A stretch of DNA of 64,000 nucleotides from a virus. The notes beneath the pieces were generated by a model. That model made no database searches and had not been told where the DNA came from. It worked only from the letters and a program-made list of their open reading frames with translations. This document shows positions 5,433 to 49,307 of the stretch, one piece after another. Each line of letters starts with the position of its first letter. Position 1 is the first letter of the stretch. Position numbers and translations under genes: made by a program. The stretch is from the IMG/VR virus record IMGVR_UViG_3300008952_000030, positions 1 through 64,000 of that record, one strand, 5' to 3'.

Positions 5433-6848
5433 TCAATTTAAAGTGATTTTATAAGGAGTGCCTACGGGGCGCTTTCTTATATTAAATGCTGATATGGATC
5501 CATTCGAGACTTTTGGTTCTCCCTCAACCCTGGTGGTAGTAGTTGTAGAATCATATATATATATTAGCCCCTTATCGTCCAAACTATCCACTTCGAATTT
5601 CGAGCCAATGACAAGTGCGTCTCCATTTATGGCAACAGAACTAGCCATCATTGGCGCATGCGCCGTTTCCTGGCTGTCGGGAGTGTATGTTTGGGAAAGA
5701 GTCCAGTATGTGGAGCCGCTCTCATATAGCCAGGCTCTTCCGTCTTTTGCGCCATTAGTCCCCCCGCCGTTGTAAACCTCTGCCCCGATGATCATGTGAG
5801 TGCTGCCAACGTCTATAGCACTTCCAAACTGAGCGCCAGCCTGATCACCAGCTATGCCCTGCTTAAAGTACCACCCATCCGAACCAAGAGCATACAAATA
5901 TGCTGCCCCTGCATTAGAGCCCCCCACATCATTGCCGGGCGCACCGATGACAAGAGTATCGTTGTGCAAGGCAACTTTCATTCCGAATTCTTCTCCTGTG
6001 GATCCACTGGGGTGTGAAATAGTCCCTTCCAAATCCCACGATGTCGAACCTGAGTTAAAAACAAATACCTTATCTACCCCTGGTGCCCCTACCGCTAATT
6101 TGCTGCCAGTGAGGTATACTGATGCCCCGAATTCAGAACCGTAGTTACCACTACTCAAGGGATTCTCAACACTAGAAGACACCCACCCGGCGCTGGTAGT
6201 CAGAAACATATATACCACGCCTTCGTACGAAGGACTATGATCTCTCGCACCTACTGCTATCCAGTCCCCATTAGTAGAAACCGCAGCACCGAATTCGTCT
6301 CCCGATTCTAGATTTGAAGCAGAAATATGTGTTTCGTTCCAAATGCTGCCTACTTTTTCCCATATGATGATTTCACCGCGATACACGGTACCGTTGTGAA
6401 ACTTCGGACTACCAGCAACTACCCTGTCGTTATATATACTGGCACCTTGGTTCCTATAACCGTACCAGGATCCGCCTTTTGTATAATCTGTGCCCATATA
6501 AAGAGAGATTCCGTTAACCCAAGTTGAGGATGTCAGTCTTGTTTCTGTTGTGGTGCCCCAATCATCTCCAGTCTTTTCAAACAACAGTATAGCACCATGA
6601 TTTGCGTTGCCGCCGCCATGAGCGGGATTAGTGTATCTAGTCTCTACAGCTATAGCCTTGTTGTTGCACAAACCAACAGTCCAGCCAACATACGTTTCAC
6701 CGTTGTCAGTAGAAGATTCTGTTTTATGCTTGTTTGTGTAAGACGATATGGAAGTCTCCACCTTCGTATATTGTCCGCGAAGGGTACTGTGCCTATCGAT
6801 AGAATAATCTGAATTATGGTTATTTAAATTTTCTATTTTTTTCGACAT
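5433..6848 (-). CDS. FG-GAP repeat beta-propeller protein
   Basis: Repeated FGxxV...lvVGAP...GxVY units. Confidence 0.85.
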   Translation of the reverse strand: MSKKIENLNNHNSDYSIDRHSTLRGQYTKVETSISSYTNKHKTESSTDNGETYVGWTVGLCNNKAIAVETRYTNPAHGGGNANHGAILLFEKTGDDWGTTTETRLTSSTWVNGISLYMGTDYTKGGSWYGYRNQGASIYNDRVVAGSPKFHNGTVYRGEIIIWEKVGSIWNETHISASNLESGDEFGAAVSTNGDWIAVGARDHSPSYEGVVYMFLTTSAGWVSSSVENPLSSGNYGSEFGASVYLTGSKLAVGAPGVDKVFVFNSGSTSWDLEGTISHPSGSTGEEFGMKVALHNDTLVIGAPGNDVGGSNAGAAYLYALGSDGWYFKQGIAGDQAGAQFGSAIDVGSTHMIIGAEVYNGGGTNGAKDGRAWLYESGSTYWTLSQTYTPDSQETAHAPMMASSVAINGDALVIGSKFEVDSLDDKGLIYIYDSTTTTTRVEGEPKVSNGSISAFNIRKRPVGTPYKITLN

Positions 6849-6867: not shown

Positions 6868-7866
6868 TTATATGGAGTCTTTACATGAAGAAAACATTAT
6901 TTCTACGTCTTTATCTTTTAGGTTCTCTTCTATCCAGAATTGCATGTCTCGAGAATTATCAAATTCAAACTGGTTAATACCAGAATAAACACACCACCTC
7001 TCAACTTCTTCGAGAACGTCAACCTTGTTTATTACGAGCTTGTTAACACCGTTAATATCAATAGCCTTTAAAAGATTATCAAAGTCCATCCAATTAACTT
7101 GCCGCGGCCGCCCAGTGGTAGCTCCGAACTCTTCGCCTGCTTTTCTTATTTTAGCGAATATCGGATCTACACCTTCAAAGAGCTTATTTCCAACATATGT
7201 TTCATAAATCTTTGCTACGCCCCAAATATCACGGATGCTTCTTGGTGGTACACCATTCAATATTGCCCCACCGACAGTGCAATGACTTGAAGTTACATAT
7301 GGATAATCACCCCAGTCAATATCAAGCCCGAAGCCTTGTGCTCCCTCGAAAAGAATAACACTCTCATCATAAAATGGACTATCGTGAAGTTCTGTATACA
7401 TGTCGACAATATAGGGCTCAAGTTCCGGAACTTCCATTGCGCGTACACCCTTTCTTGCATACTTATCTCTATATGCGGGCCCGTTGCCTCTCTTCGTGGT
7501 GCCTATCACCTCGTCTTGGCCATCCTGAGCCATATGAAAGTCTGTAATTACATGAGTGTTAGAAGCTACCCCTATTAACTCGAGTGCACTAATTCCATGA
7601 GATTCCAGCTCCTGTATTTCTTCAAAAAATTGTTTAACGTTTATTACACATCCGGGCCCTATAATAGATCTAATACCGAAGAATACACCGCAAGGGATAT
7701 GATGTGTTACGAACTTCTTCCCTTCGTGATATATCGTGTGTCCAGCGTTGCAGCCTCCATTATACCGTATTACATGAGTATAATTACCGTTTTTAGCTAA
7801 ATGGTGTGCAACCTTACCTTTGCCACAGTCGCCGTACTGTAAATCAACAATTACATCTGCTATCAT
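6868..7866 (-). CDS. purA: Adenylosuccinate synthetase (short form)
   Basis: QYGDCGKGK, GGCNAGHT, IGTTKRGNGP, EGAQGFGLDIDWGDYPYVTSS, EFGATTGRPR. Confidence 0.97.
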   Translation of the reverse strand: MIADVIVDLQYGDCGKGKVAHHLAKNGNYTHVIRYNGGCNAGHTIYHEGKKFVTHHIPCGVFFGIRSIIGPGCVINVKQFFEEIQELESHGISALELIGVASNTHVITDFHMAQDGQDEVIGTTKRGNGPAYRDKYARKGVRAMEVPELEPYIVDMYTELHDSPFYDESVILFEGAQGFGLDIDWGDYPYVTSSHCTVGGAILNGVPPRSIRDIWGVAKIYETYVGNKLFEGVDPIFAKIRKAGEEFGATTGRPRQVNWMDFDNLLKAIDINGVNKLVINKVDVLEEVERWCVYSGINQFEFDNSRDMQFWIEENLKDKDVEIMFSSCKDSI

Positions 7867-23093: not shown

Positions 23094-23166
23094 TGGAGCA
23101 TCCGAGACTCGAACTCGGAACCAGCGGATTAAAAGTCCGATGCGCTGCCAATTGCGCCAATGCTCC
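23094..23166 (-). tRNA. tRNA-Lys (UUU)
   Basis: GGAGCAT...TCGGA CTTTTAA TCCG...GTTCGAGT...ATGCTCCA cloverleaf; no encoded CCA. Confidence 0.93.
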
Positions 23167-24622: not shown

Positions 24623-24659
24623 AAACCATTATAAGATATTAAATTTCAAAAGTCAAGAA
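24623..24659 (-). repeat. 37-bp promoter-containing direct repeat, copy 1
   Basis: Identical to 25233-25269; contains TTGACT-17-TATAAT. Confidence 0.9.
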
Positions 24660-24840
24660 GTTTTTTTCGATTCTTTACCACTTCTAGGTGTTGCGGGCAC
24701 TGTTCGCTATAGCCGCAATTACAGTATATCGTGACTAAGCGCACAGCAGGTAACCCGGTTACGACTGCTGTGTCACAACGCTTGTCGCCGGGATCGCCGG
24801 AGCAACTCACCATTGGTTTAACCAAATCACCGACTTTCAC
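24646..24840 (-). CDS. MKVGDLV cassette miniprotein
   Basis: Starts inside the junction repeat at 24821-24843. Confidence 0.8.
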   Translation of the reverse strand: MKVGDLVKPMVSCSGDPGDKRCDTAVVTGLPAVRLVTIYCNCGYSEQCPQHLEVVKNRKKLLDF

Positions 24841-25021
24841 TGACTCTCCTTAGATATTGCGAGTGGACTGCATTTGAACTAGGCGCTCTTCCATCAAAGA
24901 ATCGGACGACATAACAGTTTTTCTGCGCTGCATTGGCGCTAACAATGCCGATGCGATATTCCTGTCGTAGCGGGTGCGATCGCGGCAGAGTAGGACACCT
25001 TACCAAATCACCGACTTTCAC
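24827..25021 (-). CDS. MKVGDLV...SESR cassette miniprotein
   Basis: GTG start in junction repeat 25002-25024; ends RVSESR. Confidence 0.8.
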   Translation of the reverse strand: MKVGDLVRCPTLPRSHPLRQEYRIGIVSANAAQKNCYVVRFFDGRAPSSNAVHSQYLRRVSESR

Positions 25022-25208
25022 TGATAGTCTCCAATTCATCGAGATACTCCCACAAGGTATTCCCCTGTGGTCTGGGTAGATTCCACTTAACTAACACTTT
25101 CTCCAAATAAAGAAAAGTGTCTCTCTCTATCACCAGTCCTACCAAGGGTGATTCACTCAACTCTTTGTGAGGGAATATCGTATACTTCACCAAGTCACCG
25201 ACTTTCAT
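25008..25208 (-). CDS. MKVGDLV...ISESR cassette miniprotein
   Basis: First gene after promoter repeat copy 2. Confidence 0.8.
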   Translation of the reverse strand: MKVGDLVKYTIFPHKELSESPLVGLVIERDTFLYLEKVLVKWNLPRPQGNTLWEYLDELETISESR

Positions 25209-25232: not shown

Positions 25233-25269
25233 AAACCATTATAAGATATTAAATTTCAAAAGTCAAGAA
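25233..25269 (-). repeat. 37-bp promoter-containing direct repeat, copy 2
   Basis: Identical to 24623-24659. Confidence 0.9.
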
Positions 25270-25973: not shown

Positions 25974-27206
25974 TCACATATCTTTTTCTGGAATAGCGAT
26001 AACCCTCTCACTAGTTGTAAAATACGGGCGTTGAGCATAGTATTCCGTTGTAATCCACATCCTTTGAGATTTAGACGGCACCGGCTTGGGTGCCATCAAG
26101 TCAGTCAAAATGATATGTCCGTCATAACTTCTCTCGTTAACCCATCGGGTGGGAGCGTTAAAGCACGTTCCACCGCACGACACACGCTCCCATTTACGAT
26201 TCTCTCCCTTCTTCCAATCAAAGACTTTATCCTCGACGACGACTGTATCAAAGGGAACCACCGTAAACTCTGCAATCTCAGACAACTTATTCAACTCTGC
26301 AAAGAACGCAGACAGCATCTTGTTCGACACCGAACCCGATTGATCGATAGAGATTGCCACTCTAGCAACCCTATCTGACTTTTTTCCAGCATGGATATAC
26401 GGATAACGACGGTTAATGCGTCGGATGCTCGACTTCCTGCTTGACTTCTGAGAAGTCTTGATGAAGTACCTTAGCACCTTTCGCCAGTCTAGGGTACTCT
26501 TAATCCCCTTAAGAATCTCCTCTCTACAAGAGGCAGGGACAGAGCCCCAATTGTTAGACTTTGATGCTTCGTCGGCAGCCTTCTTGATGATATCCTTAAG
26601 ACGCTCTTTAGCAATCTCTCGCGACTCTTCCGATACCTCTCCCCAACCGCTGTGATCGTCGAAAGAGTCATACTCAGTGTCTCCCGGCTCTCCCGAACCT
26701 TCTCCAGAGCCTTCGCCGTCAGTAGGCTCGCCATCTGGATTGGACTTCTTTTTTGGCATCGGTGGCATATTCTTAAGATACCACTCTGCACTTTTGCCGG
26801 AAGGCAAATCAGCAAAAGGGGTATCAGGTACGCCTGGCTTGCAGCATCCCTCTGGCAAATTATGTAAATTGCTGTTAATAGCTAAGTCGGTGGCGATGTT
26901 CCAAAGCTTTGTCATCTTTTTATCGCCATCGACTTCGGGCATCCTATCAGTGACATGCAAAAATACAATGTGATAGAACTCATGCTTAAGTACATCTCTG
27001 CGTTCGTCATCGGTGAGCTTCGCGAAAAACTCAGGACTATACAGCATCTCGAACTGAGATGATTCGGGATTGACGCGGACTCCAGCAGTCGGGACACCAC
27101 TATGGGGACGCTTATCGACTCGACGCGAAATAGCCGCGAAGAAAGGCTCATCCATAAGGAGACGAGCCATGTGTAAATTCAAATCGAAGTGCTTTTTAGT
27201 TTCCAT
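25974..27206 (-). CDS. VWA-like domain protein with N-terminal HExxH metallopeptidase-like domain (DUF2201 type)
   Basis: LKHEFYH, WNIATDLAIN, DDHSGW, MIDAS IDQSGSV, GGTCF, LTD; start moved to METKK because promoter 27244-27272 occupies the extension. Confidence 0.88.
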   Translation of the reverse strand: METKKHFDLNLHMARLLMDEPFFAAISRRVDKRPHSGVPTAGVRVNPESSQFEMLYSPEFFAKLTDDERRDVLKHEFYHIVFLHVTDRMPEVDGDKKMTKLWNIATDLAINSNLHNLPEGCCKPGVPDTPFADLPSGKSAEWYLKNMPPMPKKKSNPDGEPTDGEGSGEGSGEPGDTEYDSFDDHSGWGEVSEESREIAKERLKDIIKKAADEASKSNNWGSVPASCREEILKGIKSTLDWRKVLRYFIKTSQKSSRKSSIRRINRRYPYIHAGKKSDRVARVAISIDQSGSVSNKMLSAFFAELNKLSEIAEFTVVPFDTVVVEDKVFDWKKGENRKWERVSCGGTCFNAPTRWVNERSYDGHIILTDLMAPKPVPSKSQRMWITTEYYAQRPYFTTSERVIAIPEKDM

Positions 27207-27282
27207 CTCGATTTCTCTCTCAGTTATTGTTTGATATATAAAAAGAATATCAGACTTTTTTTTAAATGTCAAGCAATTCTTT

Positions 27283-27504
27283 TTATCGTAGGGAAATTAC
27301 TCTATTGCCATCCTGCACATAGAAGCAACTAACGCCACTCTTTTTCTTTTTAGAGGTGACGCAGAGAATATCGTCTTTGAACGCCTGCTTCACTAGGAAG
27401 TCTCCACAACCCCCCTTGTCATTCAATTTGACATACGAGGGGTTAGTTCCTAAAGAACAACCCGTTGCGAACATCACGGCAAGTGCCAACGAAAGAACCT
27501 TCAT
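27283..27504 (-). CDS. Small Cys-containing lipoprotein
   Basis: MKVLSLALAVMFATGC lipobox. Confidence 0.6.
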   Translation of the reverse strand: MKVLSLALAVMFATGCSLGTNPSYVKLNDKGGCGDFLVKQAFKDDILCVTSKKKKSGVSCFYVQDGNRVISLR

Positions 27505-27505
27505 C

Positions 27506-28582
27506 TTAATTCCCCTTCTTTTCTTCCTGCTCTCCAGCAAGAATGGTAACAATGTAGTCACTAACAGACTTGCCATCAACCATTGCCTGGTGAAGCTTAA
27601 TCGTGTTATTAATCTCTCCTGAACCCAGAACAGTCCACAACTTCATCGCAACCTCAGAGGGGAGGTTCAAGAAATAGCGAGCGAGGTTGTCAACCTGTGC
27701 TTGTGGAAGCTCTTCGACAAAAGACTCTGCTGCATCAAACTTATCAATAAGCGCGGTGTGCTCATTGATTCCAAAGTCCTTTGTTCTGTCAATCTTTCCA
27801 TGCACGAGGATGTCCTCTACGGATACCTGCTTCTCGTAATTTGCAACAAAGTCATTAAACGCGACGGCAGCTTCGAATCCCACGAAAGCACTTGTGAGAG
27901 TGTACATCGCGGGAGAAGTTTCATCCGAATCGAGAATACCAGCCTCAGTGAGACAATCACTCAATCGCTCCCATGAGCGACGTGACGGGTAAACCTTATT
28001 AGGCTCATAGTCATCCTGGTGCTCAAGGTGGTTCCGATTGTGGTTAATAAAATCCCACACCATCCCATGTACCTTGCCCGTTGCCCACGTCAACCAGTCC
28101 TCTAACGTTGGCTCAATGTCAAACACTGTCCACCTGTCAAGCTCGGCTGGATCCATCTCGCCAACCTGATATTGCTCGCCATGCTCGCCGCCATTAACAG
28201 CAGCGAACACAAGAGTGTCAGGATGAAGAACGTGCCCGTTCAGCTTTCGGCTATCAGTCAGCTCAAAGATTCCTTGACGAACCTCAAGCGTTGCCCTGTC
28301 AACCTCATCGAGGAACAGGACTACAGGCTCATCACATGCCTGCTTGAACCAGTCTGGCGGATTGAACTGAGTACTGCTGTCCTCAATAGAGGGAAGCCCC
28401 ACCAAGTCGCCCTCTGTCATTTGTGACGCTCGTCGCTCGACGATGGGCATATTGATGCTGTCAGCGTACTGGTAGACGACGGTGGACTTGCCAATGCCGT
28501 GGCGTCCACGCAGAAGCACGGGCTTTCTTACAGCCGTTACGTGCTTGACAACCTCCGAAAAAGTCTTAAAATCAACTGCCAT
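27506..28582 (-). CDS. MoxR/dynein-related AAA+ ATPase
   Basis: Walker A GRHGIGKS, Walker B LFLDEVDR, AAVN, MDPAELDR, PSRRSW. Confidence 0.92.
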   Translation of the reverse strand: MAVDFKTFSEVVKHVTAVRKPVLLRGRHGIGKSTVVYQYADSINMPIVERRASQMTEGDLVGLPSIEDSSTQFNPPDWFKQACDEPVVLFLDEVDRATLEVRQGIFELTDSRKLNGHVLHPDTLVFAAVNGGEHGEQYQVGEMDPAELDRWTVFDIEPTLEDWLTWATGKVHGMVWDFINHNRNHLEHQDDYEPNKVYPSRRSWERLSDCLTEAGILDSDETSPAMYTLTSAFVGFEAAVAFNDFVANYEKQVSVEDILVHGKIDRTKDFGINEHTALIDKFDAAESFVEELPQAQVDNLARYFLNLPSEVAMKLWTVLGSGEINNTIKLHQAMVDGKSVSDYIVTILAGEQEEKKGN

Positions 28583-31456: not shown

Positions 31457-31678
31457 TTATCGTGATGATATCAATACTAAGTCTTCCTCTCTCTGCCAAT
31501 ATGTGCGTTGGCTTGAGCCGACGGACAGATCACTGAAGAACACCAGGCACCTATCCTGTGGCTCGCCTGGGTATGCTGCTTCTTTTTTTAACACTATTCC
31601 ACGATGATACGCTTCTGGTAAGCCATGGTACCTTCTAGCTACCATGTCGCCGACTTTGAATTTATAGCTATCCGTCAT
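31457..31678 (-). CDS. FKVGDMV...LISSR family miniprotein
   Basis: Same N- and C-terminal pattern as the cassette proteins. Confidence 0.75.
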   Translation of the reverse strand: MTDSYKFKVGDMVARRYHGLPEAYHRGIVLKKEAAYPGEPQDRCLVFFSDLSVGSSQRTYWQREEDLVLISSR

Positions 31679-31815
31679 CCTCATCCCTCTGTCTTGCAAG
31701 CCAGTATTTCTCTTCTCTTAGCTTGCTAATCTTTTTGAGTCTTAAAGACTCAAAAATTTTGAGTCTTTTAATAATCTTTTGTTGTATTTTGGCTCTTTCC
31801 TGGTACTTCATTTAG

Positions 31816-32007
31816 TCACCGACTCTCACTGATTAACTCCAAATCGCTTTTCTTAGTAGTAGTTCTTGCGTTGTTGTCCTTACTCCACATAACAACCTTT
31901 CTTTCATCTGTGCCAGGGATGCATCGAATAACAATGCCATACCAATCCTTCCAGCAACTTGAAATAATCCCGTCTGGAGTGTATCGCACCAAATCACCGA
32001 CTTTCAC
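31816..32007 (-). CDS. Cassette miniprotein MKVGDLVRYTPDG...LELISESR (63 aa)
   Basis: GTG start inside the repeat. Confidence 0.85.
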   Translation of the reverse strand: MKVGDLVRYTPDGIISSCWKDWYGIVIRCIPGTDERKVVMWSKDNNARTTTKKSDLELISESR

Positions 32008-32182
32008 TGATAACCTCGTACTCTCTGATCCTATGGACCTCCACCTTCCTACCGGGGTATGCAACCCGGATGAACTCTTCAAAGCTGCCATAGTCAGGGA
32101 TACCAAGACACACAGCCACAGTTTCCTGATGGTGTGGATCGAGGCGACCCCAACGCTTCTGAACCAAATCACCGACTTTCAC
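31994..32182 (-). CDS. Cassette miniprotein MKVGDLVQKRW...YEVISESR (62 aa)
   Basis: ORF track; 14-nt overlaps on both sides. Confidence 0.85.
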   Translation of the reverse strand: MKVGDLVQKRWGRLDPHHQETVAVCLGIPDYGSFEEFIRVAYPGRKVEVHRIREYEVISESR

Positions 32183-32369
32183 TGATAACCTCTGCGCTCA
32201 TTTCTATCTGTCTACCTAATGCAATGTACCTACCATCTGTCATAACAAGCCAGTCATACTCATAAGAATCATCTCTTGGTAGTTTCTTAACTAAGGTGGC
32301 AACATAACTTTTCAAGTTAAAATGATTGTATGTGCCACGAGATAACCTTACCAAATCACCGACTTTCAC
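32169..32369 (-). CDS. Cassette miniprotein MKVGDLVRLSRG...AEVISESR (66 aa)
   Basis: GTG start inside the repeat. Confidence 0.85.
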   Translation of the reverse strand: MKVGDLVRLSRGTYNHFNLKSYVATLVKKLPRDDSYEYDWLVMTDGRYIALGRQIEMSAEVISESR

Positions 32370-32511
32370 TGATAACCTCCGTATCATCTCTATGAACTCG
32401 ATACTCTCCATCAGGAAAGAGAACATAAAACCCGAAAGGAATAACCTTAGTGATAATACCAAGTGTTAGCTGGGGTTGACTTACCTGTTTCACTAAATCA
32501 CCGACTTTCAT
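32356..32511 (-). CDS. Cassette miniprotein MKVGDLVKQVSQPQLTLGIITKVIPFGFYVLFPDGEYRVHRDDTEVISESR (51 aa, not in ORF track)
   Basis: Manual translation between two repeats. Confidence 0.85.
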   Translation of the reverse strand: MKVGDLVKQVSQPQLTLGIITKVIPFGFYVLFPDGEYRVHRDDTEVISESR

Positions 32512-32692
32512 TGAGAACCTCCAAAAACCTAATTCCGAACCTTGTATCTGTACCGTCTACTAGTACCTTCACCACTATAGAGGGGTGATGTGGATTTCTC
32601 GATGGCTCAACAAAACCAACCACCAGTCCACACTTCGATCCCCACCAAAAACAATCATCATCTGGCAGTTTTACTAAGTCGCCGACTTTCAC
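32498..32692 (-). CDS. Cassette miniprotein MKVGDLVKLPDD...LEVLNESR (64 aa)
   Basis: ORF track. Confidence 0.85.
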   Translation of the reverse strand: MKVGDLVKLPDDDCFWWGSKCGLVVGFVEPSRNPHHPSIVVKVLVDGTDTRFGIRFLEVLNESR

Positions 32693-32858
32693 TTAACACC
32701 TCGCAGCGATTTTCGACATAACCTCGATCGAGATAGTCTAACACGCCATTGTTTGCTAGAACACGATAGGCGTTGACGTCGCCATATTCGTCCTTATACA
32801 CAATGATGCCAAAGGCATCGTTGAACTCCTTGTCCACAATCAAATCACCGACTTTCAT
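32658..32858 (-). CDS. Cassette miniprotein MKVGDLIVDK...VLSESR+RLSKTAR (junction stop lost)
   Basis: TGA of the junction replaced by CGA, giving a short read-through. Confidence 0.8.
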   Translation of the reverse strand: MKVGDLIVDKEFNDAFGIIVYKDEYGDVNAYRVLANNGVLDYLDRGYVENRCEVLSESRRLSKTAR

Positions 32859-33057
32859 CTTTGCACTCCTCCCAGCAATTTTCTATCACGTAATAATGGC
32901 AATTTTTGCCGCATCCATTTGGATTTTTATTACAAAACATTTCGCTCTCCTGCTCGCAAGTCATAATTTTCTCATGACAAAGAGAGGCGCTTTCTTCCAC
33001 CGGGCAGCCGGCGAGAACGACACTGACAAGAACCAAAACAACAATCTTAAGCTTCAC
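32845..33057 (-). CDS. Cys-rich small lipoprotein ending in DESR (junction-linked)
   Basis: Lipobox LAGC, 8 Cys; the 3' end is a junction copy. Confidence 0.7.
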   Translation of the reverse strand: MKLKIVVLVLVSVVLAGCPVEESASLCHEKIMTCEQESEMFCNKNPNGCGKNCHYYVIENCWEECKDESR

Positions 33058-33217
33058 TTACAACCTCCATAACCTGTATCTGTATTGGCACCTCGACTCC
33101 GTACACGAACACCCAATCGTTTTCGAGTTCAACTCTTCTCACGATATAAATGCTATCCCCCAAATCGAAAAGCCGATTGACGGATTTAATGTACATAACC
33201 AAGTCGCCTGGTTTCAC
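33047..33217 (-). CDS. MKPGDLV...MEVVSEA miniprotein (56 aa, not in ORF track)
   Basis: Manual translation; its end GAGGTTGTAAGTGAAG supplies the SD and GTG of the next gene. Confidence 0.8.
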   Translation of the reverse strand: MKPGDLVMYIKSVNRLFDLGDSIYIVRRVELENDWVFVYGVEVPIQIQVMEVVSEA

Positions 33218-34667
33218 TATCTCAGCTCCCCACTGAGTACGCTCTGGCGCGTTATATAAAGAGAGTTTATTAAAGCAGTCGTTCCATCGTGCCTCAGTAC
33301 AGTCACGAACCCGGCATACATGCTTTGCCTTTTAATCACCAACACAGGCTTGTAATCATGCATAAAAAGCATGCCCGTGCGAATTTCACTCTCCGACACA
33401 TAACGCATGTCACTGAACCTCCAGCTTCCTAACCGTGTTGAGTCTTACCAACTTCTTAAACCCTACATACCTTGAGTCTGCGTCGTTCCTAGCGTGAACT
33501 ATGACAACAGGCACCATACCAACGAACTCCCCACCGTATCCGAACTCATCAAACGTCTCCACCGTGCGTGGTGAACCAGTAACGATAGCTCGAAATGCGC
33601 TACCGAGCGAAACGAAATCACCTTTTTTAATCATTTTCTTTCCCGCAATTTTGATTTGTTCCTAAGTCTAACAAAGTTTTTTCGAGTTGTCAAATATTTT
33701 TGACTGGAGAAACAAGCTTTAACCATTTCGATCGAACCATTACTTGCTCCGAAGTACCTAGCAGAAGCACACAACAACTATATTCCTCGTTGTGTAGCAT
33801 GTCCTCTGATAAATGTCCGTGAGCCGGCATTTCCAAATAGTGCGTTTCTTGAATGTAGTGTATTTTGTCGACAACTATGCCCGTTGACTCATTGTGAGGA
33901 AGCATAGGCGAGTCGAAACGAACCAAATCACCTACTTGAAAATGTCTTCTTTGCATGCTTGATATCAGATCTGACTAGTCTTGTTTTGTTTGCCTTATGT
34001 CCCGATTTACACCAAGTCACTCGGAAAAAAGCCGATGATTCATATACCAACCCTGTATCGTCTCTCTGTATATGAGAGAGCATCTTAAGCTTTTTGCCAG
34101 AAGCAGAGAGTGTCACCAAGTCGCCCACCTTCATGTGTTAACTCTTTTCAAGTTTGACAATAAGACTGGTTCTGGGCTTGTTCCCCCGGTATAGAGTACC
34201 CTACACACGCAGTCAGATCCTTCAAAGATAGCCTGAGCATCAACGCTGATGAGGATACCGTGTTTTCTGTTGCGGTGGAGAACTAAATCTCCAGCCTTTA
34301 AACTAATTAATTTTAACATTTTACTAATCTCCAAAATCTCTCATCTAAAACAAGTATCTGTCCCTTGTGTTCAAGCTTATAAGCTTTGCTACTCCTTCTA
34401 GTCAATACTCTTATTATTTCACCCTCGCCATAACAACAATCTGTATGACTATTAGTATCATATATTTTTACTTTATCGCCTTTTTTCAGCATGTATCAGC
34501 TCCGAATAAAATTCTAATGATTTTTTGCCAGTCGACGCCCACAAGACAGTGACATATGGCTGCTCAAAGCTGGTTCCCGACGACAAATGAACCTCGACAA
34601 TCAAACCAACCCTTGTTTTGTTGTGCCTGTATTGGACTAAGTCCCCTATTTCAAACTCATACAACAT
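33217..34667 (-). other. Run of seven further small xxGDxV-type ORFs (33217-33408, 33410-33634, 33690-33956, 33928-34134, 34131-34319, 34313-34492, 34473-34667)
   Basis: N-termini IRTGMLF, KKGDFV, QVGDLV, KVGDLV, KAGDLV, KKGDKV (manual ORF) and EIGDLV. Confidence 0.7.
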
Positions 34668-34681
34668 AGCGAACACCATTG

Positions 34682-34754
34682 AGCTGACGGAGAGACTCGA
34701 ACTCTCAACCTGCTGATTACAAATCAGCTGCTCTGCCAATTGAGCTACGTCAGC
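34682..34754 (-). tRNA. tRNA-Thr (UGU)
   Basis: GCTGACG...GCTGA TTTGTAA TCAGC...GTTCGAGT...CGTCAGCT. Confidence 0.95.
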
Positions 34755-34757
34755 ATG

Positions 34758-34834
<77 letters not shown>

Positions 34835-34843
34835 TTAACTGTA

Positions 34844-35065
34844 TCATACCATCCCTTGCACCATAGTTAAAGTATCTTTCATGAAAGTACACACTTGCCC
34901 TGTTTCATTAATGAGAACAAGTGCGCGGCTATCCTTTCTCCCGTATGCATTTTCAAGCCTCAAGAGGACACCCACCTTCCCTTCCCATCCATAGTACCCA
35001 TCCTCCAGCGGATAGTCTCTCCAGCTATTGGGAATGGGGGCCCTGACTAGATCACCAACCTGCAT
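34844..35065 (-). CDS. MQVGDLV family miniprotein
   Basis: Under promoter TTGACA-17-TAGAAT (35089-35117). Confidence 0.75.
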   Translation of the reverse strand: MQVGDLVRAPIPNSWRDYPLEDGYYGWEGKVGVLLRLENAYGRKDSRALVLINETGQVCTFMKDTLTMVQGMV

Positions 35066-35398: not shown

Positions 35399-35959
35399 CT
35401 ACATAGTGCCGAGAATATGCATAAGTGACGCAAACAGTACAAAAATATGCCACACAGTATGATAATACGGCACATAATCATGTATATAAAAATACAAGCC
35501 CACAAGATATACGGCACAACCAACGATGAACATCGAAGATAGGGGAGCAGATGAAAATAAAACAATTGATAAACACAATAGGCCGTTGGCTACAAAAGTT
35601 TTAACAGCTGCCCTCTCCAGAAGTTTAGTACCATAGTGAGACACAATGTACTGGCACCCTACTGCTCCTGCGAACAAGCAAAGCACACACCAATACAGCA
35701 GGTTGTGCGGAAACAAGTAGGCTATCGAGGTACACGCTATCGTTGCGTGAATTGACGCCATGTCGAGCATCCTATATAAACTCTTTCTTGAACCCCTCTC
35801 TGTGCCGTGGTACAACACCGAGCAGAAAAAAGTACAGCACAACATTGCAGAAATTATCTTCGTTGCTGGTGTGCCCGTGACAAAAAAAGAAAAACACATG
35901 CCCACCCCAAAGGCATGTGTTACTGCATTCCACGTCTCCTCTTGCCTGTGTCTTCTCAT
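35399..35959 (-). CDS. Hemolysin III / PAQR family membrane protein
   Basis: EETWNAVTH, SVLYH, RMLDMASIH, HTVWHIFV. Confidence 0.88.
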   Translation of the reverse strand: MRRHRQEETWNAVTHAFGVGMCFSFFVTGTPATKIISAMLCCTFFCSVLYHGTERGSRKSLYRMLDMASIHATIACTSIAYLFPHNLLYWCVLCLFAGAVGCQYIVSHYGTKLLERAAVKTFVANGLLCLSIVLFSSAPLSSMFIVGCAVYLVGLYFYIHDYVPYYHTVWHIFVLFASLMHILGTM

Positions 35960-36045
35960 TTCACTTTACGTTCTCCCACCAAAAAACCCGTATAAGACAG
36001 CCACAAAGCAAAAGAGTATCATGACATGTAGACAGTTCTCTAAGC

Positions 36046-37305
36046 TCACTTTTTCTTTAACTTTGCCAGTTCGTCCTGCCACTTAAGCATTGTTTCCACC
36101 ATGCTCTTCTTGTTCATCGAACTGATTTCCTTATGAGAAAGCTTGCCATCACTGGTGATGGTTTCTTGACTGCTCGTAACAATCTCTCTCTTGTATCCCT
36201 CTTGCTTAAGCTTTTCTGCAATCTTCATCCTATCCTTCGCCAGCTCAGCATATTTTTGAGAGATATCAATACCAATCCATTTTCTGTCGTTGAGGTGCGC
36301 CATCTTTGTAGTTGTGCCAGAACCCACAAAAGGATCGAGGACAACATCTCCCGGCTCAGTCCAAGTCAAAACGTGATCTTCTACCAGTTTTTCAGGATAA
36401 ATTGCTGGATGTTCAAACGCAATCTTATCCTTTGTTGAAAAGTTCTTTCCTGTGTTGTACTTCCAGATATTGTTTCGCGGGGAGAACTCTGGTACAGGCT
36501 TTTGCACCCGGCTCTTGAGCTTTCCGTCCTTGCCACGCATCGATGAAACACCGAGCCCCAACTTAGAATAGTTAACCTTCCGAAAGTCAAAACCCTCATC
36601 ATCAATAGTCAAGCCATTTTGCGCCTCTTTGTATCCCATCGACTTAAGCGCCTTCCTGATAAGCCCGAACAACTCTTGCTTTTCTGATTCAGTGTGACTC
36701 TCCTCAATTGAGTCAAAGTTGAACTTATCGTTAAAACTGCCCCAACCAGTCCACTTATTTGGCTTGTCACACACAAGCTTGTGAGTCTTTGGCTTGCCCT
36801 TCGAGAACACAAACATATACTCAAATATTTGCGAGTAGCGATTGCCGTCTCTGCGAGCAGGAAACGATGTACCATTCTTCTCGTAAATCATGGTATCGTG
36901 AATATTAAATCCGATATCTTTAAAGTACAAAGCCTGGCGGAAAGAACTTCCAGACTCGCTTCCTTTGTCAACCGCATCTCCAACAACCCACACAACAACC
37001 CCACCTGGCTTAGTTACTCTATAGAGTTCGTCTGCAATGTCCTCAAAAGGAAATGAATATCCATTATTTTCTGTGAGCTTTTCAGCTATCTTCTTTTTCT
37101 TAAATGCTGATAGTTCTCTCTTAAACTCTTTCTCGTCTGAGAAGTCGTCGACTGTCTTGTTGAACGAAGCAGTAAACTCGTCAGAATAAAACCTAATGTC
37201 ATCGTACGGAGGAGAAGTCACCGTCAAATCAACACTACTATCAGACATAAGTTTAAGCTTTTCAACTGAATTTCCACACAGAATTTTATTAAGCGGCAAT
37301 GACAT
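36046..37305 (-). CDS. Beta-class N4-cytosine/N6-adenine DNA methyltransferase
   Basis: VTSPPY precedes HPAIYP and DPFVGSGTT. Confidence 0.93.
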   Translation of the reverse strand: MSLPLNKILCGNSVEKLKLMSDSSVDLTVTSPPYDDIRFYSDEFTASFNKTVDDFSDEKEFKRELSAFKKKKIAEKLTENNGYSFPFEDIADELYRVTKPGGVVVWVVGDAVDKGSESGSSFRQALYFKDIGFNIHDTMIYEKNGTSFPARRDGNRYSQIFEYMFVFSKGKPKTHKLVCDKPNKWTGWGSFNDKFNFDSIEESHTESEKQELFGLIRKALKSMGYKEAQNGLTIDDEGFDFRKVNYSKLGLGVSSMRGKDGKLKSRVQKPVPEFSPRNNIWKYNTGKNFSTKDKIAFEHPAIYPEKLVEDHVLTWTEPGDVVLDPFVGSGTTTKMAHLNDRKWIGIDISQKYAELAKDRMKIAEKLKQEGYKREIVTSSQETITSDGKLSHKEISSMNKKSMVETMLKWQDELAKLKKK

Positions 37306-41409: not shown

Positions 41410-43290
41410 TTAGACTTCCTCAAATTCAGCATCTACGACGTCGTCATCCTGATCCGCAGGCTCTTCACTTGATGGCTCTTGCTTTGCTGCCGACTCATAC
41501 ATTTCTTTGCCTGCAGCCTGCATTGCCTGTGTCAACAGCTCAAGCTCTTTCTTGATTAACTCCGGTGTACTTTCCTGAGTTAAGCACATTCTTGCCGACT
41601 CTATTGCTCTTTGCACGTCGCCGCTGGTAGCTTCTGAAATCTTATCCGGGTTTTCTTTGAGAAGTTTTTCTGCTTGAAATACCGTTGATTCAAGCTTGTT
41701 CTTGTCCTCTACCTGTTGGCGGCGTTCCTTATCTTTCGATTCGTTAGCCTTTGCTTCTGCCACCATCCTATCCACCTCGCCCTTAGACAAGGATCCTCCA
41801 GACTTCTCGATAACAATCTTTTGTTCCTTGTTTGTAGCTTTATCAGTCGCAATTACGCTTACAATTCCGTTGGCGTCGATATCGAACTTAACATCGATTT
41901 GAGGAACTCCGCGAGGAAGAGGCGGGATGCCATCAAGCTTGAACACTCCCAAAACCTTATTATCTGCTGCGAACTCCCTTTCCCCTTGCAAAACTTTGAT
42001 ATCAACGGCAGGCTGACTATCAGCAGCAGTTGTAAAAACCTGTGATTTAGAACAAGGTATCGTTGTGTTCCTGTCGATAAGCCTTGTCATAACACCTCCC
42101 ATTGTCTCGATACCTAGCGATAATGGAGTCACGTCAAGAAGAAGCAAATCCCTTACTTCTCCCGTAAACACTCCACCCTGCACTCCGGCGCCGAGCGCTA
42201 CAACCTCGTCTGGATTGACGGAAGAGTTTGCCTGCTTACCGAAGAAATCTTCCACTGCCTTACGGACACAGGGGATCCTTGTAGAGCCTCCAACCAAAAT
42301 CACTTCGTCTATCTCCGACGATGACATGCTAGCGTCCTCAAGCGCATTCTTGACTGGTTCAATAGTCTTTTTGACTAACTCATCTATCATCTGCTCAAAC
42401 TTGGAGCGGTTCAAGGTGAGCTGCAAGTGCTTTGGGCCGGAGGCATCGGCAGTGATAAATGGAAGATTCACATCCGTCTGCTGAGTGCTTGACAATTCTA
42501 TTTTAGCTTTTTCTGCTGCTTCTCTCAACCTCTGCATTACCATGGAATCTTTCGATACGTCGATGCCAGAATCTTTCTTAAACTCTTCGACTATCCACTG
42601 GATTAGAACCCTGTCAACATCGTCACCACCAAGATGCGTGTCCCCATTCGTACTTAGAACCTCGACTACGCCATCAGCTATCTCAAGCACAGAGACATCA
42701 AAGGTGCCGCCGCCCAAATCGTATACAACAATCTTCTTTTCATCCTGCTTGTCAAGCCCATAAGCAAGAGCTGCAGCAGTTGGCTCGTTGATTATTCTCT
42801 TAACCACAAGTCCAGCAATCTGTCCAGCGTCGCGGGTTGCTTGTCGCTGAGCGTCGTTAAAGTAAGCTGGGACAGTAATGACTGCCTCCTTCACTTCCTC
42901 CCCTAGATAAGATTCAGCTGCTGACTTCAGCTTAATAAGAACCTGAGCGCTGATTTCTTGAGGAGCTAATCCTTTTCCGTTTAACACAATCTCGCAGGAT
43001 CCGGATGCTGACTTCTTTACTTCGTAGGGCATCTCAGATGCCTCTTTCGTCACCTCTTCATAGTTCATCCCCATAAATCTCTTGGCGGAGTAGACGGTGT
43101 TCTTGGCATTCGTAACAGCCTGCCTTCGAGCTGGATTGCCGACAACTCTTTCTCCGCTTTGCAGATACCCCACTACCGATGGAGTAGTTCTGGCTCCCTC
43201 TTCGTTTGTGATTATCTTTGGGCTGTCGCCCTCCATGACAGCGACGGCGCTATTGGTTGTTCCTAAATCAATTCCGATAACTTTTGACAT
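41410..43290 (-). CDS. dnaK: Hsp70 chaperone DnaK
   Basis: [43 protein letters not shown]. Confidence 0.99.
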
Positions 43291-47729: not shown

Positions 47730-49307
47730 TTAGTCTCCCATTTCTATAATAGCGTGGTTAGTTGTCAAAAGAGTGCCTGCTACTGACGCTGCATTGCGCA
47801 GAGCGCTCCTTGTCACCTTAACAGGATCGATGATTCCTACTTCAAACATGTCAACCAATTCGCCGGTTGCAAAGTTGATGCCCGTTCCGGCTGAAGCCTC
47901 TGTGATTGCGCTTAGTGTCTCTTCTACATCCATCCCACAGTTAGTAGCCATTTGGCGGATGGGCTCCTCCAGAGCGCGGCGTATAATAGAAACGCCCGCT
48001 TCTTGATGCTCATTGTCGGTATTTACTTTAAGCTCTGTCGAAGTTCTCAACAAGGCAGTGCCTCCACCTGAAATAACTCCCTCAAGCTGAGCTGAGCGCA
48101 CTGCCTCTAGAGCATCCTCAATACGGTGCTTCTTTTCTATCATTTCAATCTCGGTTGCTGCTCCAACACGAATAACTGCGACGCCGGAAGCCAAACGAGT
48201 AACTCTATCCTGCACTCTCTCCGCTTGATGCAGAGAGTCAGTTTGCTCAACCTCCGCCTTAAGGGCGTCGATTCTATTCTCAACCTCGTCCAAGTCTCCT
48301 GCTCCGCCGACAACGGTTGTCAGCCCCTTCTCAATCTCGATTGTCTTCGAAGAGCCGAAGTCAGTCAACTTAGCCTCCTTAAGCTTGTCTCCGGCTGAGC
48401 GTCGAAAATACTTAGCACCAACTGATATCGCCAAGTCACTCATGATACCTCTTCTTTCTTCTCCGTATCTAGGTGCCTTAACTGCCGCCACCTTCATCGT
48501 CCCTCTCATGGAGTTCATAATCAATGCCGCAAGAGCTTGCCCCTCAATGTCATCGGCTACAATAACAAACGGACGACTCTCGCGGGCAGCAATCTCTAGC
48601 GCTGGTAAAATCTGATCAACAGTTTCAATCTTTTCATCAGTAACTAAGAAAACAGGATCCTCATAGCGCACAACTCCACGCCTGTCATCGGTGATAAAAG
48701 CTGTAGCTGCATAGCCAGAGTCAAACCTGAAGCCCTCCATCAAGTCAAGACTTGTATCTACCGAGCGCGCTTCCTCAATAGTGATGGAGCCGTCCTTCCC
48801 AACCTTGTCGACAGCCAAAGCAACCAAGTTTCCAATGTCTTCGTCTCCATTAGCAGAAATAGTAGCAATGTGAGCAACGTCATCAGCGCTCTGAATCGGG
48901 CGCGCAGCATTAAGAAGCAACTTATTTACTTCCACAACTGCTTTGTCGATGCCTCTCTTTACTTCGATGGGAGCTGAAGAGTCTGCGTTCATCCTGTCGG
49001 AGGCTGCGTTGAAGATGGCGCGAGCTAACACTGTAGAGGTGGTTGTACCATCCCCAGCGTCGACATTAGTCTTTGCTGCTGCCTGCTTAACAACCTGTGC
49101 ACCAGCATTCATGAACTCATCTTCAAATTCAATGAACTTGGCTACAGTGACTCCATCCTTGGTGATGATGGGGCGCTTACCCTTTTCATGAATAATTACA
49201 TTTCTACCCCTAGGGCCCAATGTTGAAGCAACGTTGTCGGCTAAGACATTAACTCCATCAAGTATTTTTTGTCGGAGGCAAGCTCCAGATGCGAATTTTT
49301 TAGACAT
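47730..49307 (-). CDS. groEL: Chaperonin GroEL
   Basis: TLGPRGRNV, ITKDGVTVA, AGDGTTTS, GIIDPVKV. Confidence 0.99.
   Translation of the reverse strand: MSKKFASGACLRQKILDGVNVLADNVASTLGPRGRNVIIHEKGKRPIITKDGVTVAKFIEFEDEFMNAGAQVVKQAAAKTNVDAGDGTTTSTVLARAIFNAASDRMNADSSAPIEVKRGIDKAVVEVNKLLLNAARPIQSADDVAHIATISANGDEDIGNLVALAVDKVGKDGSITIEEARSVDTSLDLMEGFRFDSGYAATAFITDDRRGVVRYEDPVFLVTDEKIETVDQILPALEIAARESRPFVIVADDIEGQALAALIMNSMRGTMKVAAVKAPRYGEERRGIMSDLAISVGAKYFRRSAGDKLKEAKLTDFGSSKTIEIEKGLTTVVGGAGDLDEVENRIDALKAEVEQTDSLHQAERVQDRVTRLASGVAVIRVGAATEIEMIEKKHRIEDALEAVRSAQLEGVISGGGTALLRTSTELKVNTDNEHQEAGVSIIRRALEEPIRQMATNCGMDVEETLSAITEASAGTGINFATGELVDMFEVGIIDPVKVTRSALRNAASVAGTLLTTNHAIIEMGD

Follow-up and report, generated by a model that had tools for sequence, protein, structure and literature searches.

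Repeat-mediated shuffling is known in T4-type phages for intergenic motifs, and the closest described system is the modular shuffling mediated by PeSLs, intergenic units that comprise an early promoter and a stem-loop terminator and for which excised mini-circles have been demonstrated (PMC2839356; Comeau et al. 2014, PMC4122927). Here we describe a locus within the first 64 kb (hereafter the window, positions 1 to 64,000) of a single 76,425-bp viral record, IMG/VR IMGVR_UViG_3300008952_000030, that consists of six head-to-tail open reading frames (ORFs) on the minus strand (31816–32858), referred to as cassettes A to F, joined by a short repeat that is coding in two frames. We think it likely that this locus is a translationally coupled operon of SH3/KOW-like cassettes in which the repeat, or connector, acts as portable homology for the exchange of whole cassettes. 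As in PeSL-mediated shuffling, short conserved repeats lie beside small, non-essential, mostly unknown genes of a T4-like phage, genes have been inserted, deleted or replaced between close relatives at breakpoints that fall in the repeats, and homologous recombination is the proposed engine; in addition, a second array in the window (array 2) is bracketed by two identical promoter-like 37-mers. Unlike PeSLs, however, the junction described here is coding in two frames, spans ~20–30 nucleotides (nt) and links members of one protein superfamily. The junction contains neither a promoter nor a terminator, and the flanking promoter-like 37-mers are found at array 2 only. What is new is the position of the crossover site, which is inside coding sequence and translation signals, and literature searches that included MKVGDLV and KVGDLV returned no paper describing such a system.

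The cassettes and their junctions are as follows, with lengths in amino acids (aa), junctions located by sequence match, and counterparts given for the closest relative, a 158-kb contig (L055/L119, here L055) whose flanks are syntenic with those of the array and 68–75% identical at the nucleotide level.

32658–32858, minus strand: cassette A, 66 aa, beginning MKVGDLI; ortholog with 70% nt identity at 6596–6775 of L055.
32498–32692, minus strand: cassette B, 64 aa; no counterpart in L055.
32492–32521, minus strand: junction B/C, 3 mismatches to the 30-mer, ATG start.
32356–32511, minus strand: cassette C, 51 aa; best homolog (92% aa identity) in the unrelated locus L087, not in the close relative.
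32350–32379, minus strand: junction C/D, exact 30-mer, with the EVISESR-stop tail, GAGG, the GTG start and MKVGDLV.
32169–32369, minus strand: cassette D, 66 aa, predicted SH3-like barrel with two short helices; ortholog with 77% nt identity at 6928–7131 of L055.
32163–32192, minus strand: junction D/E, exact 30-mer.
31994–32182, minus strand: cassette E, 62 aa; absent from L055.
31988–32017, minus strand: junction E/F, exact 30-mer.
31816–32007, minus strand: cassette F, 63 aa, the last member of the array, predicted five-stranded KOW/Tudor-like barrel; paralog at the first array position in L055.
31813–31829, minus strand: dead junction GTGAGAGTCGGTGACTAA, which gives cassette F its ISESR-stop tail and whose own start frame is shut after 5 codons.

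The repeat is a 30-mer, GAGGTTATCAGTGAAAGTCGGTGATTTGGT, present in three exact copies (31988–32017, 32163–32192 and 32350–32379) and in two inexact ones, at 32492–32521 with 3 mismatches and at 25002–25031, in array 2, with 2; in 100 shuffles of the sequence zero chance copies were expected. Its 17-nt core, RTGAAAGTCGGYGAYTT, matches 11 times in the window versus 0.09 expected. In the frame of the upstream gene the repeat reads GAG GTT ATC AGT GAA AGT CGG TGA, that is, EVISESR-stop, and in the +1 frame it reads GTG AAA GTC GGT GAT TTG GT, which provides a GTG start and MKVGDLV, with a Shine–Dalgarno sequence (SD), GAGG, 7–8 nt 5' of the start. Sequence identity among junction copies drops sharply at both edges of the 30-mer. 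An earlier reading made from the letters alone (the sequence-only reading) had proposed that three identical 30-bp repeats join six genes of 51–66 aa and that the repeat is dual-coding, with the EVISESR-stop tail in one frame and the SD, GTG and MKVGDLV in the other; the exact copies and both frames were found as it described. The fixed 14-nt overlap that it proposed, counted from the G of GTG through the A of TGA, holds at the regular junctions and fails at two positions: the A/B junction (32676–32692) reads GGC GAC and has no TGA, so that cassette A reads through to 32658, and the last junction (GTGAGAGTCGGTGACTAA) is a dead start, MRVGD-stop. The ATG start of the B/C junction changes the upstream tail to EVLNESR. 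Also within the core (for example, at 31991–32010) are the 7-mers TCAGTGA and TCGGTGA, nearly identical and spaced by 10 nt, which might constitute a tandem protein-binding site. A +1 frameshift at CGG-UGA that would fuse neighboring cassettes was considered but rejected for lack of support: once slipped, the tRNA would be poorly paired, and the SD lies too far upstream.

The junction extends well beyond this locus. A 20-mer, TCAGTGAAAGTCGGTGAYTT, was found on more than 116 contigs of IMG/VR and frequently forms arrays, in which start-to-start spacings are mostly 142–199 nt and 43 of the 60 spacings shorter than 400 nt equal 1 modulo 3. To avoid selecting loci by the motif itself, we took a sample of 80 loci (1.29 Mb) through the neighboring MoxR-like ATPase, relatives of which occur on 350 contigs (a 233-aa neighbor used as bait gave only 2 loci, its alignment being too divergent for searching, and the ATPase was used instead). 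These loci contain 467 MKVGD starts, every one of them on the gene strand, and the ORF downstream has a median length of 62 aa. The codons AAA-GTC-GGT (AAAGTCGGTGA) are used at 72% of the 467 starts, versus 3.6% expected from the codon usage of the clade, with usage at 77% where an upstream ORF overlaps and 61% where none does. At 310 overlapping junctions the valine codon is GTC in 278 cases (90% C), GTA in 19, GTG in 8 and GTT in 5, even though a change from GTC to GTA is silent both downstream, where it leaves valine, and upstream, where CGG becomes AGG and both encode arginine; the valine codon four residues on, by contrast, is unconstrained (GTA 154, GTT 120, GTG 93, GTC 15). Conservation of the junction thus exceeds the constraint of both reading frames, which is the outcome of the synonymous-site comparison that the sequence-only reading had proposed as a check. 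Third positions directly outside the core are free save for the G of GAG, which is conserved as part of the SD. That the core is so uniform at silent sites is consistent with either pool-wide homogenization or selection for exchangeable cassettes.

That whole genes are gained, lost and reordered at the repeat, as had been suggested from the single sequence, is seen in related phages, with breakpoints inside the junction. Between our contig and L055 all BLAST blocks begin and end at junctions: only A and D have orthologs, the F paralog occupies the first position in place of the last, L055 lacks B, C and E but has four further cassettes, and four or five other cassettes differ between the two arrays. 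More closely related pairs resolve single events. L189 and L193, which are 97% identical over many kb, differ by a 148-nt cassette found only in L189 and a 145-nt cassette found only in L193, and diagnostic bases place both crossovers within 11–16 nt of TGAA[A/G]GTCGGTGATTT; L143 and L144 (97.5% identical) differ by one 183-nt cassette with a junction on each side. Transfer between more distant backbones is evident as well. L120 and L123, with backbones ~70% identical and ATPase genes 69.6% identical, share a two-gene block of 363 nt at 99.2% identity; relative to the ATPase, the block is on the upstream side in one contig and on the downstream side in the other, and identity stops at the last base of a junction. 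Three islands of a single cassette (L122/L130, L161/L162 and L164/L169) are 94–100% identical on backbones of 72–80% identity and have junctions on both sides, whereas a fourth (L158/L180) is delimited by a junction on the right side only. Array content and order differ in almost every contig.

The proteins that are shuffled are diverse. After removal of the first and last eight residues, the 852 distinct cassette proteins from all fetched loci separate at BLAST E<1e-3 into 361 unlinked components, 242 of them singletons, and the six genes of this array occupy six different components, in keeping with the earlier statement that the stretches between repeats share no visible similarity. Profile comparison nonetheless links two subfamilies whose interiors BLAST separates: hhalign aligned the F and D subfamily profiles with 96.9% probability across the first three strands. 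The sequence-only reading had called these miniproteins hypervariable, a description that does not stand, since the ratio of nonsynonymous to synonymous substitution rates (dN/dS) in subfamily interiors is 0.06–0.37, indicating purifying selection in each group tested and hence a large collection of old subfamilies, each conserved in its own right, rather than hypermutation that is still under way. AlphaFold (AF2) models built from subfamily alignments have five strands in cassette F (predicted local distance difference test score, pLDDT, 88.5) and five strands with two short helices in cassette D (pLDDT 94.2). The top Foldseek matches in the PDB are the KOW domains of Spt5/NusG, PWWP, Tudor, L14e and NdhS for F, and FeoA, the SH3-like domain of IdeR and NdhS for D, with template-modeling (TM) scores of 0.6–0.74 but E-values of only 6.5e-3 to 0.14. 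Two of the six cassettes, F and D, are thus confidently predicted to fold as SH3/KOW-like barrels, and for these two the models bear out the SH3/KOW/Tudor-type fold originally proposed for the array. On the basis of the profile link, the models and the structural matches, the cassettes form one superfamily. Resemblance to the KOW domain of NusG/Spt5 and to Tudor/PWWP, FeoA and NdhS barrels, the best matches of the two models, extends to the five strands and the ~60 residues; unlike those domains, the cassettes are stand-alone proteins without sequence membership at the Pfam level. For ten family members, no Pfam family (KOW, Tudor and SH3 included) reached the cut-off, and PHROGs gave only matches with E>0.05. 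Cassette D has 71 homologous clusters, all 71 unnamed, and in the ESM Atlas only unnamed viral clusters were matched; the nearest named cluster there, with SH3-C_UBE2O on 52% of its members and a score of 0.90, serves as a lead only. From their size, fold, position and turnover, the cassette proteins are probably early host-directed binders, with components of the host or of its defences as their putative targets.

Neither tyrosine (PF00589) nor serine (PF00239) recombinases, nor reverse transcriptases (PF00078), were found in our contig or in four relatives, three of which are 100% complete, and control genomes gave matches in the PF00589 search. By contrast, all five encode a RecA/UvsX-type recombinase, our own copy lying at 72797–73591 of the record, outside the window. 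With no tyrosine or serine recombinase found and with RecA/UvsX in all five, homology-driven exchange is the simplest account, and we infer that the shuffling is the work of homologous recombination or slippage and not of a dedicated enzyme, and that exchange together with the translation signals keeps the connector uniform. In the mechanism that we propose, the six paralogous ~60-aa barrel genes would form a translationally coupled operon segment in a small-gene, probably early, region. The connector, ~20–30 nt long, encodes the final strand of one protein with its tail (LEVISESR-stop) and carries the SD and start codon of the next along with that protein's first strand (MKVGDLV); being common to hundreds of different cassettes across the clade, it would provide portable homology. 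Loss and duplication would result from slippage or unequal crossing-over between copies ~150–200 nt apart in one genome, and replacement and transfer from double crossovers between co-infecting phages, probably by way of the phage's own UvsX/RecA-type machinery, such that whole cassettes would be deleted, inserted, replaced or relocated. Because the crossover would fall inside the connector, each product would be in frame and would retain a ribosome site, a start codon and translational coupling.

The sequence-only reading had likened the array to an integron or a clustered regularly interspaced short palindromic repeat (CRISPR) library. It had noted that no integrase is visible in the window, and PF00589 is indeed absent from the whole contig, but the likeness itself does not survive the searches described above, in which the three complete relatives lack tyrosine and serine recombinases and reverse transcriptase and have RecA/UvsX instead. 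Integrons (IntI and attC) do share with this locus an array of promoterless single-gene cassettes that is read from an upstream promoter and in which the cassette is the unit of gain and loss; unlike in integrons, there is here no integrase and no folded site of the attC type, the cassettes overlap, and exchange appears to be driven by homology. When folded, the junction yields only a weak hairpin of 4+3 base pairs without covariation. In contrast to a CRISPR array, both the repeats and the "spacers" are coding and the interiors are under purifying selection; a search of Rfam gave no match to a CRISPR direct repeat and nothing but tRNA, cas genes not having been searched for. A diversity-generating retroelement (DGR) differs likewise, as PF00078 is absent here and dN/dS is 0.06–0.37. 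From these tests of their defining features, the system is not an integron, a CRISPR array or a DGR. In lambdoid phages, short boundary or linker sequences shared at gene borders serve as crossover points between unrelated modules. Those sequences are sporadic and module-specific, whereas the connector described here follows one standard in hundreds of genes, with its silent sites conserved.

Other explanations of the conservation and the shuffling were considered. The array might be an ordinary family of tandem paralogs, with the junction kept for its two β-strands, SD and coupled start, with differences between relatives that reflect ordinary divergence and random indels, and with no particular part for the repeat in recombination. 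The arrangement of SD, start, AAA second codon and a stop 11 nt downstream is indeed a textbook layout for coupling, third positions just outside the core are free, and the cassettes are under ordinary purifying selection. Such a family would not be expected, however, to hold a doubly silent site 90% fixed or to keep the core at 61% of the starts that have no overlapping partner, and in it one would not expect three cassette indels in 97–99% identical pairs, together with three two-sided near-identical islands (and two more one-sided) on backbones of 70–80% identity, to end inside the junction; we therefore regard this explanation as quite improbable. Conservation in excess of both reading frames is also what would be seen if the core were kept for a sequence-specific function in RNA or DNA, such as a repressor or nuclease site or a start–stop hairpin, with recombination as a by-product. 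The paired 7-mers TCAGTGA and TCGGTGA, 10 nt apart in the core, would suit such a function, and for several copies folding predicts a small hairpin, AUCA-G-UGA-AAG-UCG-G-UGAU, with the fixed C of GTC paired to the G of the start codon. Yet the outer stem of this hairpin does not covary (odds ratio 0.99, p=1), at the inner pair G-U is not favored over G-A, folding z-scores of junctions are mostly non-significant, no Rfam family matches the junction (only two tRNAs were matched), and a RegA-type regulator (PF01818) was not found in a search whose positive control also gave no match. This explanation, which can coexist with portable homology, strikes us as unlikely.

To a dedicated, integron-like site-specific system, with an unrecognized recombinase acting at the junction, we attach hardly any weight: a uniform short site common to all cassettes and the cassette as the unit of gain and loss would fit it, but three complete genomes lack tyrosine and serine recombinases, the junction has no paired structure of the attC kind, the crossover intervals coincide simply with the identical stretch, and the RecA/UvsX gene in every relative searched offers a simpler route. 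It is also very unlikely, in our estimate, that the shuffling is an artefact of metagenome assembly in which contigs switch between co-occurring strains at a shared 30-mer. Unitigs from four sequencing runs do break at the junctions, with many different continuations; against this, the islands rejoin the same backbone on both sides, the same patterns recur across contigs of different samples and studies, and reads of more than 100 nt extend across a repeat of 30 nt. In the Logan unitigs of these runs, four marine DNA runs of one study, each cassette is reproduced without differences. Across the interior cassettes (31988–32870), the k-mer depth of the unitigs in three runs is roughly half that of the flanks (7–9 versus 17 in X1), which hints at co-existing array variants on one backbone. 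Unitig "joints" were rejected as evidence for deletions or circles, as their sides are shorter than 30 nt and the joints are ambiguous.

Several points nonetheless weigh against exchange through portable homology as we have set it out. A homology of 11–30 nt is short for efficient recombination of the UvsX type in T4, so slippage or another route may do the shuffling. The core might also be so uniform because it has a sequence-specific function, in RNA or in the binding of a protein. At the free flanking sites identity is 0.45 within a locus and 0.50 between adjacent junctions, barely higher than the 0.42 between loci, which indicates that local gene conversion is weak. All of the comparisons use metagenome-assembled contigs, in which short repeats can give chimeric joins, and because the Logan unitigs break at identical 30-mers, the order of D and E rests on the original assembly. 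We nevertheless favor the view that the connector provides portable homology. More tentatively, and with appreciable doubt, we raise the possibility that the connector is a standard joint, kept uniform across the clade because it makes any SH3-like binder gene an exchangeable, ready-to-express unit. The arrays would then amount to a library of small binders that spans the pan-genome and is built by recombination, comparable at the protein level to a cassette system without an integrase and maybe aided by an unrecognized factor that acts on the 20-mer.

The window has a G+C content of 43%, nearly all of its genes lie on one strand, and the record is ~42% complete by CheckV. Genes in the window include those for DnaK, GroEL, a PolIII-alpha-like polymerase, a DNA methyltransferase and a MoxR-like ATPase beside a VWA/DUF2201 protein, together with three tRNAs. 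The three relatives rated 100% complete are 193–206 kb, and all three carry a T4-type Gp23 capsid gene, on which the T4-type affiliation rests; the sequencing runs that contain the stretch are marine metagenomes. Judging from these sequences, the source is an uncultured marine T4-like phage (a myovirus) with a genome of roughly 190–200 kb. When cultured phages (INPHARED) were searched at the DNA level with the array and a 38-nt junction, no relative was found, and the closest cultured homologs of the ATPase show no more than 31% identity. A 72% identical homolog of cassette D (protein P0057) is found on a 278-kb contig filed under a "Euryarchaeota archaeon" metagenome-assembled genome; the contig probably comes from a phage and was mis-binned, but it might point to the host.

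Other features that surround the two arrays are listed here.

32845–33057, minus strand: cysteine-rich lipoprotein-like gene, 70 aa, outside the SH3-like family; ortholog at 6019–6255 of L055.
31668–31811, minus strand: coiled-coil-like gene, 47 aa, without an MKVGD start and with a new ATG in use, from the ORF list and comparison with L055.
33047–35065, minus strand: upstream run of older family members, with xxGDLV starts at 33217, 33634, 33956, 34134, 34334 and 35065.
24646–25208, minus strand: array 2, three cassettes with starts at 25208, 25021 and 24840 and the same junction core.
25233–25269, minus strand: promoter-like 37-mer (TTGACT-17-TATAAT), 5' of array 2.
24623–24659, minus strand: identical copy of the promoter-like 37-mer, just past the end of array 2.

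The first two of these genes show that the connector is not confined to the family. The final codons of the lipoprotein-like gene (..DESR-stop) and the ATG of cassette A share 14 nt, in the arrangement found elsewhere in the array. The ortholog of the coiled-coil gene in L055 (7300–7452) keeps an intact start, GTGAAAGTCGGTGAT, which encodes MKVGD and accounts for the dead junction in the window; in the window copy (31668–31829) the connector is shut by a stop, and a replacement ATG lies three bases on. As read from these sequences, the connector can attach to non-family genes, namely the coiled-coil gene and, likewise, the ..DESR-stop end of the lipoprotein-like gene. The run of older members has divergent codons and no canonical junction, is syntenic with L055 and has two tRNA genes interposed, tRNA-Thr(TGT) and tRNA-Arg(TCT) (34681–34834), midway among its small xxGDLV genes; tRNA-Lys(TTT) (23094–23166) lies close to array 2. 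The two 37-mers bracket array 2 exactly, in a PeSL-like layout that could allow excision of the whole three-gene array. The MoxR-like AAA ATPase and the VWA/DUF2201 metallopeptidase-like protein (25974–28582) form a conserved pair, and their relatives on 350 IMG/VR contigs make the pair a good marker for an uncultured clade of T4-like marine phages. Full-length homologs of DnaK and GroEL are encoded at 41410–43290 and 47730–49307, the former ~55–61% identical to DnaK-like sequences of phage records, and a membrane protein of the hemolysin-III family (PF03006) together with the DNA methyltransferase (35399–37305) lies just upstream of the small-gene region.

With the crossover inside the translation signals, recombinants would automatically be in frame and coupled, and conservation at silent sites spans hundreds of genes on several hundred marine phage contigs. 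The connector thereby offers a concrete case for selection on exchangeability, that is, on evolvability, in viruses. The arrays also point to a very large and unexplored reservoir of SH3-like proteins of ~60 residues. These are probably early host-directed binders, and screens of them could look for activity against host defences or in host takeover.

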